Below, piece by piece: positions 35,954-37,281 of a stretch of 64,000 nt of DNA. This DNA is from a virus, in the IMG/VR virus record IMGVR_UViG_3300044629_000431, positions 82,478 through 146,477 of that record. One strand, given 5' to 3'. Within the stretch, counting starts at the first letter, position 1. The number at the start of each line of letters is the position of its first letter. A program made the position numbers and the translations under genes. The notes beneath the pieces are model-generated. The model had not been told where the DNA came from. It worked only from the letters and a program-made list of their open reading frames with translations, and did no database searches.

Positions 35954-36117
35954 TTCTTTCCAAATCCTTTTGATGTTTGTGCTTCAAGGTTTGCAAGTTC
36001 TTGTTTCACTACTCGCAGTTGTTTTTTCATTTCTATAAGTTGCTCAGCAGAATATAAGTGTTCTTTTTTGGTTAATTTCTCAAGCAACTTTACTAGTTCT
36101 CGTGCTCTACTAGTCAT
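35950..36117 (-). CDS. Small hypothetical protein (55 aa)
   Basis: Hand-translated MTSRARELVKLLEKL...SKGFGKK; ATGA-coupled to thyX. Confidence 0.7.
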   Translation of the reverse strand: MTSRARELVKLLEKLTKKEHLYSAEQLIEMKKQLRVVKQELANLEAQTSKGFGKK

Positions 36118-36283
36118 CTAAATCAGAATCCTCAAAAATTTCGTCGTAATCTAAAATCGGTCTTCTTCTGACCTCTGCTTCGGTGTAGGAATAGGCAGAC
36201 GTATCAGAATAAACTTCTGCTTTCAAAGAATCAACAAGAAGTTCTAGATTACGGACAATAAGTTTTAGTTTGTCTTTGTCCAT
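36110..36283 (-). CDS. Small conserved cyanophage protein (57 aa)
   Basis: Hand-translated MDKDKLKLIVRNLELLVDSLKAEVYSD...DYDEIFEDSDLDD. Confidence 0.75.
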   Translation of the reverse strand: MDKDKLKLIVRNLELLVDSLKAEVYSDTSAYSYTEAEVRRRPILDYDEIFEDSDLDD

Positions 36284-36314
36284 AAGATACTATTCTCTTG
36301 AGGCATTTTAACAT

Positions 36315-36341
36315 AAAAAAAGGAGGGGATCAACCCCTCCT
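36315..36341 (-). terminator. Rho-independent terminator of the microprotein operon
   Basis: AGGAGGGG-TTGAT-CCCCTCCT followed by a U-tract. Confidence 0.85.
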
Positions 36342-36497
36342 GTTAAATATTGGTTCCATATCTAAAACTTGTTCAAACCACTCTTTAAGATGTATGCGGT
36401 AACAAGACCAATACTTACACCCACGATATGTAAGTTGATAACAGGCAGGTTCTCTGCTGTCCTTATCCATATCGTCCCAGTGGTAATGGTAATCCAC
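36330..36497 (-). CDS. Microprotein (55 aa) with DUF4278-like LTYRG.KY motif
   Basis: GTG start overlapping the previous stop; MDYHYHWDDMDKDSREPACYQLTYRGCKYWSCYR... Confidence 0.55.
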   Translation of the reverse strand: MDYHYHWDDMDKDSREPACYQLTYRGCKYWSCYRIHLKEWFEQVLDMEPIFNRRG

Positions 36498-36580
36498 TAT
36501 TTAAAAAGAAATTGAATATAAAGCGACAATAAAGTAATTACAACCGCACAACCTGCGGTAATTTGTAATACTGCGAACAT
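36497..36580 (-). CDS. Hydrophobic microprotein (27 aa, single TM helix)
   Basis: MFAVLQITAGCAVVITLLSLYIQFLFK; TGATG-coupled. Confidence 0.55.
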   Translation of the reverse strand: MFAVLQITAGCAVVITLLSLYIQFLFK

Positions 36581-36678
36581 CACTTTGCTCCAACGAGTTG
36601 TGCTAGTTGTGCTTGGTGACGGCGCTCTTCTTTTTGTTTTTGTTCTTTGATAAGTTGTAGGAAGTTTAGCTTTTGCAT
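36580..36678 (-). CDS. Gln/Lys-rich microprotein (32 aa)
   Basis: MQKLNFLQLIKEQKQKEERRHQAQLAQLVGAK; TGATG-coupled at both ends. Confidence 0.6.
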   Translation of the reverse strand: MQKLNFLQLIKEQKQKEERRHQAQLAQLVGAK

Positions 36679-36815
36679 CACTTATGCCCCTCCTTTACGA
36701 ACTTAACACCACGATAGGTTTCGTTGTATTGTTGGGCTTGTTGTTGCATTTGCTGTTGGTATTCGATACGCTTTTGGGTATCGTATTCAACACCTCTGTA
36801 AACGACTTTAGACAT
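36678..36815 (-). CDS. DUF4278-family microprotein (45 aa), Gln-rich
   Basis: MSKVVYRGVEYDTQKRIEYQQQMQQQAQQYNETYRGVKFVKEGHK; two YRGV motifs; strong SD AAGGAG. Confidence 0.8.
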   Translation of the reverse strand: MSKVVYRGVEYDTQKRIEYQQQMQQQAQQYNETYRGVKFVKEGHK

Positions 36816-36847
36816 TAGGTTTTCTCCTTAGTTTTTTAGGTTAAAGA

Positions 36848-37017
36848 GCGTTCCTTCAGTCGGCTTTTGCGTCTATTTTACACTCCTTTGGAGCAATCTG
36901 TTTGATTTCCCAAATCAAGTCATTTTTTGCTTGTTTTGGAATATCAACTTTATAAACTCTTCCAATCATTAACTGTGCTTGTAAACAAGTTAATAAGAGT
37001 GTTTCCATAGATGAACG
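36848..37017 (-). ncRNA. glnA (glutamine-I) riboswitch-like aptamer 2, with a 130-nt P2 loop
   Basis: CGTTC-A-TCTAT[...]ATAGA-CGCAAAAGCCGACTGAAG-GAACG-C. Confidence 0.7.
36856..37008 (-). CDS. Microprotein (50 aa) encoded inside aptamer 2
   Basis: METLLLTCLQAQLMIGRVYKVDIPKQAKNDLIWEIKQIAPKECKIDAKAD. Confidence 0.65.
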   Translation of the reverse strand: METLLLTCLQAQLMIGRVYKVDIPKQAKNDLIWEIKQIAPKECKIDAKAD

Positions 37018-37020
37018 ATC

Positions 37021-37271
37021 CGTTCCGAGTCGGCTTACTTCCGTCCTATTCAGTTTAGCACTTAAGTCTCACAACATCCTTTCGGAGTTCTGATAGCAAT
37101 CGGTCTTCTTTTCTTTGGTCTACTACATCGTCGTTTTTAACGATGTCCATTAGTTCCCACGCTGCGTCACAACTTATTGTCACTTGATTTGATTTGGCAA
37201 GTTGAGGCGTAGAGATAGAAAGAAGTGGAACCCATGCTAAAAGCAAAAGTGCCTTAGACATAGGATGAACG
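37021..37271 (-). ncRNA. glnA (glutamine-I) riboswitch-like aptamer 1, with a 210-nt P2 loop
   Basis: CGTTC-A-TCCTAT[...]ATAGGA-CGGAAGTAAGCCGACTCG-GAACG. Confidence 0.7.
37055..37261 (-). CDS. Small protein (68 aa, signal-peptide-like N-terminus) encoded inside aptamer 1
   Basis: ORF track; two Cys with spacing similar to 36856..37008. Confidence 0.65.
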   Translation of the reverse strand: MSKALLLLAWVPLLSISTPQLAKSNQVTISCDAAWELMDIVKNDDVVDQRKEDRLLSELRKDVVRLKC

Positions 37272-37281
37272 TTAGAGGGAT

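Follow-up and report, generated by a model that had tools for sequence, protein, structure and literature searches.

Organisation of the locus

The window analysed here is a 64,000-nucleotide (nt) stretch (positions 82,478 to 146,477) of the virus record IMGVR_UViG_3300044629_000431, a 146-kb IMG/VR sequence; among cultured phages its nearest relatives are Synechococcus myoviruses (Kyanoviridae) from freshwater and estuaries. From position 36815 to 36330 its minus strand carries four consecutive open reading frames (ORFs) of 45, 32, 27 and 55 amino acids (aa), referred to as o1 to o4, which overlap by 1 nt each, follow putative tandem glutamine (glnA-type) aptamers and end in an intrinsic terminator (Table 1). 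The four ORFs, their overlaps (TGATG at o1/o2 and o2/o3, TAGTG at o3/o4) and the closing terminator had been described in a first-pass annotation of this DNA and were all confirmed. Its sequence details, namely two YRGV motifs and 8 Gln in 10 codons in the first ORF, a hydrophobic third ORF and the segment LTYRGCKY in the fourth, were likewise correct. Glutamine riboswitches paired with a small DUF4278 protein are already known; the chain is a new, multi-cistronic and phage-borne version of this arrangement.

Table 1. Features of the o1-o4 locus and its surroundings (positions within the window).
Feature	Position	Strand	Description
o1	36678-36815	-	ATG start, 45 aa; DUF4278-type, two YRG motifs around a Gln-rich linker
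o2	36580-36678	-	ATG start, 32 aa; predicted basic helix micro-protein (H module)
o3	36497-36580	-	ATG start, 27 aa; predicted single transmembrane peptide
o4	36330-36497	-	GTG start, 55 aa; acidic His/Tyr N-terminus, predicted YRG hairpin and helix
Intrinsic terminator	36314-36341	-	5' stem arm also codes for the last residues of o4 and its stop codon
o1 leader	36816-36873	-	3' half of aptamer 2 (36848-36873), then anti-Shine-Dalgarno segment CUCUUUA (36842-36848)
Tandem glnA-type aptamers (putative)	36848-37272	-	P2-loop ORFs of 68 aa (37055-37261) and 50 aa (36856-37008)
d57	36110-36283		Conserved small gene
Promoter-like sequence	36305-36333	-	TTGATC-17-TAAAAT with TG

Conservation and coding potential of the four ORFs

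A scan of IMG/VR with o4 matched 310 contigs, of which 80 were retrieved for analysis and their neighbouring genes mapped by tblastn. Most loci that reach far enough upstream share the gene order o1-o2-(o3)-o4-d57-(d55)-thyX, more divergent loci carrying type-B or type-C forms in place of o1 and o2, and those with the chain beside thyX cover thyX identities from 62 to 100%. In 44 distinct o1-to-o4 segments from other phage contigs every ORF was open, with zero in-frame stops. The ratio of nonsynonymous to synonymous differences (pN/pS; pooled Nei-Gojobori ratios over non-independent pairs) was 0.27 in the frame of o1 against 1.09 and 1.72 in the other two frames, 0.25 against 1.03 and 2.46 for o2, 0.58 against 0.74 and 0.93 for o3, and 0.19 against 1.61 and 1.24 for o4, while the control gene thyX gave 0.30 in frame. 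Judged from these comparisons, purifying selection is confined to the proposed frames of o1 to o4. Because the chain is kept in the 44 segments under such frame-specific selection, the four ORFs are conserved protein-coding genes as far as sequence evolution can tell, and not chance ORFs, o3 being the weakest case. Lack of conservation, which the first-pass annotation had named as evidence that would count against its proposal, is thus the opposite of what was found. In public gene calls the exact o1 occurs in 159 contigs and the exact o2 in 84 contigs; the exact o3 and o4 sequences of the window were not found there. Genes of 27-55 aa are routinely missed or mis-started in annotation.

The cistrons are joined in the same manner throughout. 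In the 44 segments the junctions consist of 1-nt (TGATG, TAATG, TAGTG) or 4-nt (ATGA, GTGA) overlaps, the exceptions being a single zero gap and, in a segment without o3, a 26-nt overlap between o2 and o4. Shine-Dalgarno (SD)-like motifs precede o1 in 42 of 44 and o2 in all 44 segments, o3 in 24 of 39, and o4 in only 3 of 44. In the window o1 has its own SD (AAGGAG, 36824-36829); the SD of o2 (AAGGAGG) sits within the 3' end of o1, and the o2 ATG overlaps the o1 stop codon, with an alternative in-frame GTG one codon upstream at 36681. The o4 copy of the window lacks an SD and starts with a GTG overlapping the o3 stop, most relatives using ATG. This stop/start geometry is as expected for termination-reinitiation, on which o4 would be the most dependent. 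With an overlap at each junction and a distal cistron devoid of an SD, the chain has the layout of a translationally coupled operon. A programmed frameshift joining o1 and o2 was considered and rejected, given that the junction lacks a slippery site, that a strong SD precedes o2 and that stand-alone o2 relatives are common.

The weakest of the four cases, o3, is a hydrophobic peptide with a Kyte-Doolittle 19-residue maximum of 2.18 in the window copy. Its 33 distinct versions form two subfamilies with little mutual identity and contain no stops in frame, versus 2.5 and 1.1 stops per sequence in the other frames; all are hydrophobic (19-residue maximum of at least 1.7) and end in a C-terminal K or R. 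Five of the 44 segments (L024, L036, L063, L074 and L079) lack o3, and there o2 directly abuts o4. It could thus be argued that only o1, o2 and o4 are genes and that the o3 interval is a chance-open spacer, or a "bridge" for ribosomes that yields a functionless peptide. The five segments without o3, its in-frame pN/pS only modestly below that of the other frames, its absence from all public gene sets and an alternative frame that is often open too would agree with such a spacer. Nevertheless we regard it as unlikely, since every version starts with an ATG overlapping the o2 stop, closes with a stop overlapping the o4 start and keeps the stop-free frame, the hydrophobic core of transmembrane grade and the terminal K/R across two subfamilies that have little else in common.

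Relation of o1 and o2 to host downstream peptides

The two YRGV motifs of o1 (residues 6-9 and 34-37) lie around its Gln-rich stretch, and their YRG residues (Y6 R7 G8 and Y34 R35 G36) are invariant in the family alignment. The protein thereby shows the motif, the length (approximately 45-135 aa) and the cyanobacterial context by which DUF4278 proteins are recognised. The first-pass annotation had proposed DUF4278 membership and a search with hidden Markov models, and for o1 this search gave support. The window copy scored 19.7 bits (E=1.1e-3) against PF14105 (DUF4278), which is below the Pfam gathering cut-off of 25.3 bits, a Gln-poor type-B relative (L064) exceeded the cut-off with 26.8 bits, and 14 of the 15 aligned family members match DUF4278 at E<=0.01 and no other family. 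A match to phrog_5049 was also obtained (E=1.7e-10), and a word-index search detected no fused relatives of the DUF4278 module of greater length. On these profile matches o1 belongs to the DUF4278 neighbourhood and is a DUF4278-type double-YRG protein.

The second ORF had been described as merely Gln/Lys-rich, which is correct but incomplete. No match for o2 was found in Pfam or NCBIfam. A profile search against 1.84 billion representatives returned 44 clusters, nearly all of them stand-alone proteins of 27-43 aa, with two longer relatives of 58 and 60 aa. The o2 profile furthermore matches 9 of 401 sampled cyanobacterial genomes (E down to 3e-8), all of 1.9-2.9 Mb save one weak match in a 4.7-Mb genome. 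The host ORFs concerned encode 48-aa peptides or helix-YRG-YRG fusions, the similarity being to their N-terminus, and in 7 of 7 host loci scanned a Glutamine-II aptamer (RF01704, 38-54 bits, cut-off 33) lies directly upstream. By this homology o2 qualifies as a relative of the picocyanobacterial riboswitch-associated "downstream peptides"; it is, on sequence grounds, their helix module and of host origin. Since the o2 profile matches lie behind host Glutamine-II aptamers, o1 and o2 appear to be two modules of the host downstream peptides which are present here as separate coupled cistrons. The same peptide family is therefore found with different aptamer classes, namely Glutamine-II (RF01704) in hosts (L245-L251) and the Glutamine-I RF01739 type in phages (window, L001-L003).

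The two modules are also found joined. In phage S-CREM1 the N-terminus of o1 is fused to the o2 helix in a 48-aa protein (Y-H), and a 55-aa helix-YRG-YRG (H-Y-Y) fusion followed by o4 is present in IMG/VR contigs (L065, L067, L073) and in the cultured marine phages S-RSM4, S-WAM2 and WH25-B, the H-Y-Y form also occurring in a host locus (L246). As other phages and hosts encode the two as a single fused polypeptide, o1 and o2 are presumed to act together; the split and the fused forms probably define two modules working together.

In one IMG/VR contig (L028:2197-2310) o1 is frameshifted within the run of Gln codons, which results in a 37-aa product with an unrelated tail; the cause is a sequencing error or else a CAA repeat prone to indels. 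Some public records in the o1 cluster are named "AgaZ/GatZ aldolase subunit" and some in the o4 cluster "N-glycosylase/DNA lyase"; for proteins of 45-56 aa such names, assigned automatically, are evidently spurious.

The phage-only protein o4

The family alignment of o4 shows invariant H6, C19, C32 and H36 together with the YRG segment, which is part of LTYRGCKY in the window. The gene was found in the 310 IMG/VR contigs and in 37 cultured phage records, all Synechococcus myoviruses, and was not convincingly found in the 401 cyanobacterial genomes. S-SRM01, DSL-LC02 and S-CREM1 possess the o1 and o2 modules but no o4, and each o4 locus whose upstream ORFs were read has a YRG or a helix module upstream.

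For o4 the proposed DUF4278 membership was not borne out beyond the level of the motif. The window copy gave no Pfam match at E<=10; against positions 40-57 of the DUF4278 profile it reached 10.6 bits (E=0.12). Of 30 o4 relatives 11 match DUF4278 weakly (best E=0.0049) and nothing else, and hhalign aligned 14 columns of o4 and o1 with a probability of 45%. The AlphaFold2 model of o4, of moderate confidence (pLDDT 68.8), places strands at residues 20-24 and 27-31 and a helix at 33-45, with YRG at the hairpin turn, and o1 shows the same arrangement, YRG at the hairpin turn and a helix behind it, in a low-confidence model (pLDDT 58.6). We therefore describe o4 as a putative divergent YRG/DUF4278-like module whose likeness is at motif level only and which is phage-only within the data searched.

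Two other assignments of o4 were rejected. A zinc-finger-like beta-beta-alpha fold would have called for a significant structural match, and a Foldseek search of the o4 model against the PDB yielded none with E<=0.001, the top hits being C2H2 fingers with E>3 and TM-scores of 0.2-0.3. A lead to the viral family DUF7441 from the ESM Atlas (0.81) was not confirmed by Pfam scans. Searches of PDB sequences with the o1, o2 and o4 profiles returned chance matches only.

Glutamine synthetase and the poly-Gln run

The first-pass annotation had suggested that the micro-proteins are phage effectors of host nitrogen assimilation and had drawn a link to the inactivation of glutamine synthetase (GS). The general part of this proposal stays plausible in view of the regulatory logic and the host-derived modules; the link to GS finds no support in the sequences. 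In its explicit form the latter idea regards the phage proteins as inactivating factors similar to IF17 or IF7 that shut down host GS. DUF4278 is indeed the N-terminal moiety of IF17, both IF17 and picocyanobacterial DUF4278 genes are under glutamine aptamers (PMC6212724), o1 and o2 are basic and, like the inactivating factors, proposed to be expressed at high glutamine, and reviews consider that picocyanobacterial DUF4278 proteins possibly co-evolved for GS binding (PMC6316151). However, IF17 can inactivate GS without its DUF4278 part, whose main role is to stabilise the protein; inhibition resides in the IF7-like C-terminus (PMC6316151).

This C-terminus has no counterpart in the phage proteins. 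A profile of 17 cyanobacterial IF7/IF17 sequences, obtained via an aptamer-pattern locus in genome G001 and a subsequent phylum-wide search with ORF extraction, has an IF7-type core (NRQQSML with Arg residues) that showed no similarity to o2, o4 and o1 in hhalign (probabilities of 0.3%, 0.1% and 0.2%, respectively). A comparison with a single IF7-type sequence gave 1.6%, and the o2 profile search of the 1.84 billion representatives contained no relatives of IF7 or IF17 length. The specific candidate of o2 as an IF7-like GS-binding helix was rejected after hhalign comparison with the fetched IF7-type sequences. Since both the similarity to the IF7 core and relatives of IF7 length are lacking, the sequences contain no pointer to GS in particular, and we consider a role as GS-inactivating factors improbable. 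The phylum-wide search also revealed eleven cyanobacterial loci (L210-L223) in which an IF7-like protein of 45-56 aa without DUF4278 directly follows an aptamer motif, ACGGAAGTA; the classical longer IF7 forms from the same search have no ACGGAAGTA motif upstream.

The run of Gln codons in o1 had further been proposed as a third sensor, based on tRNA charging, in which the translation of o1 would report on Gln-tRNA and gate the coupled downstream ORFs. The 8 Gln in 10 codons lie in a gene that would have to be translated for re-initiation further along the chain, and the run is present in all type-A relatives; both points are compatible with such a sensor. Phage versions of types B and C and the host homologues, however, lack the run and keep the coupled architecture, and because the run is lineage-specific while the coupled chain persists, the idea is weak. 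Moreover, the riboswitch already provides a glutamine signal, the window carries no tRNA-Gln, and neither a stalling motif nor alternative-structure logic was found, so that a poly-Gln sensor appears highly improbable.

Aptamers, proposed control of the o1 Shine-Dalgarno sequence, and terminator

Upstream of the chain at least one glnA-type aptamer 3' half was detected in all 47 loci with enough sequence, and two in 41 of them. In the window both aptamer halves are present, 145-227 nt apart owing to an ORF-bearing P2. Rfam gave no aptamer match on the window (RF01739, E<=1; gathering cut-off 35 bits) because both P2 hairpins have an ORF (68 and 50 aa) inside them. In DSL-LC02 and S-CREM1, relatives whose P2 is short, the scores against RF01739 were 35.6 and 33.5 bits, respectively. 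Both aptamer ORFs have their start codon in the 5' strand of P2; the 50-aa ORF has its stop codon in the 3' half of the aptamer. All four combinations of insert and no insert in the two aptamers occur among the relatives, and more divergent phages carry a different ORF of 59-64 aa at the insert position.

In the minimum free energy fold the CUCUUUA segment just after aptamer 2 pairs with UAAGGAG, which includes the o1 SD, and this sequestering segment is kept in relatives in two sequence variants. For two DUF4278 genes, gifB of Synechocystis and one of Prochlorococcus MED4, a glutamine aptamer has been described as a translational ON switch (PMC6212724). By analogy with these two genes the predicted hairpin would fit a translational ON switch.

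At the opposite end of the chain an 8-bp G+C-rich stem (36341-36321) followed by T7 overlaps the o4 stop codon, the surrounding 56-nt fold having -17 kcal/mol. A hairpin (dG <= -8) with a U-run was found at all 51 distinct o4 3' ends of relatives, and the stem displays compensatory changes among relatives although its 5' arm is also coding.

Proposed function of the transcription unit

We consider it fairly probable that the locus forms a transcription unit, conserved among the T4-like cyanophages of Synechococcus (Kyanoviridae), by which four micro-proteins are dosed according to glutamine. The unit would comprise a promoter, the tandem glutamine aptamers, the four overlapping micro-protein genes and the terminator. 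High glutamine would open the SD of o1 in a similar manner to the gifB leader, and ribosomes ending o1 would re-initiate on o2, o3 and o4, so that all four would be dosed by a single glutamine signal. Following the logic of the fusions, o1, o2 and o4 may form a small complex with o3 as an optional membrane partner, and this complex may bind a target in host nitrogen metabolism when glutamine is plentiful, GS being just one candidate. The regulatory logic of high glutamine together with the host origin of two modules makes the sensing or manipulation of host nitrogen status the most economical reading, and a function as effector of host nitrogen status is plausible.

Several points weigh against this glutamine-dosed unit. 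Translational coupling is deduced solely from the geometry of the junctions, and as Rfam is blind to the window aptamers, the presumed binding of glutamine by the split aptamers is derived from relatives. Confidence in the two structure models is low to moderate (pLDDT 58.6 and 68.8), and the searches gave no relative with a known function. The weak selection on o3 (pN/pS 0.58) and its loss from 5 of the 44 segments form a further objection.

A more far-reaching and tentative version assumes that the phage took over the host downstream peptide, divided it into a YRG and a helix module that are translated separately, and added the phage-only Cys/His YRG protein and the membrane peptide, all being made in fixed proportion and only at high glutamine. 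The product might be a hetero-oligomeric device that captures a regulatory hub of host nitrogen metabolism (GS, PII/PipX or a transporter). If true, it would offer the first functional handle on the picocyanobacterial DUF4278 family.

The genes around the chain suggest another role, in which the micro-proteins tune the nucleotide synthesis of the phage and glutamine, the amide donor for purines and pyrimidines, serves as the cue. Downstream of the chain d57 and thyX are found almost always and d55 sometimes, and the gene for the ribonucleotide reductase beta subunit precedes it in DSL-LC02 and WH25-B. A terminator separates o4 from d57/thyX in 51 of 51 versions, however, gene neighbourhood in T4-like phages often mirrors timing and not function, and the host homologues of o1 and o2 are not located beside nucleotide genes as far as examined. 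A role in nucleotide synthesis therefore seems quite improbable.

Comparison with known systems

Few regulatory units are commoner in marine picocyanobacteria than glutamine riboswitches with their DUF4278 downstream peptides, and the function of the downstream peptides has been an open question since 2010-2018. The cyanobacterial DUF4278 genes under glutamine riboswitches (gifB/IF17 leader of Synechocystis, PMM1846-type ORFs of marine picocyanobacteria, named "IF17-like" or "downstream peptide"; Klaehn et al. 2018, PMC6212724) share with the phage unit a glutamine aptamer directly before a tiny basic YRG protein and an SD-sequestering platform suggestive of a translational ON switch. In contrast to them, the phage unit has tandem glnA (type I) aptamers with P2 ORFs, the single host gene appears split into o1 and o2, and o3 and o4 are appended; unlike IF17, the phage proteins possess no IF7-like C-terminal domain.

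The glnA RNA elements of T4-like cyanophages (RF01739; S-CREM1, PMC9964418) belong to the same aptamer family and the same phage family. Unlike in the window, however, the annotated glnA aptamer of S-CREM1 precedes the single-cistron 48-aa fusion, with neither o3 nor o4. The published account of S-CREM1 stops at the RNA, its downstream ORFs not having been analysed (PMC9964418), and no description of the phage downstream cistrons was found in a literature search of limited coverage.

Small overlapping genes coupled in translation through ATGA or TGATG junctions are common in phages and in operons. The window chain resembles them in its 1- or 4-nt overlaps and its last cistron without an SD, and differs from the usual case by four consecutive cistrons of 27-55 aa, here presumably coupled, under one metabolite-sensing leader. 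Should the coupling hold, the chain would be a clear example from nature of four micro-proteins being dosed by a single metabolite sensor. Synechococcus myoviruses retain a remodelled multi-cistronic copy of the host unit under strong selection, in hundreds of contigs as well as in the cultured phages S-RSM4 and S-RIM8, both of which have the H-Y-Y fusion together with o4. This offers tractable phage-host pairs and clear constructs for finding the binding partners of the peptides.

Neighbouring and additional features

The conserved small gene d57 downstream of the chain matches phrog_878 (E=1.2e-14). A promoter-like sequence that overlaps the o4 terminator (Table 1) would start d57. The genome-wide DNA pattern used for aptamers was too permissive, most of its 120 matches being due to chance and only the cyanobacterial loci L096 and L122 being useful. 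Two tandem matches to the glnA-aptamer pattern were found near the end of a contig binned as a SAR86 metagenome-assembled genome (L164:968-1046), which could represent a non-cyanobacterial or a mis-binned occurrence.

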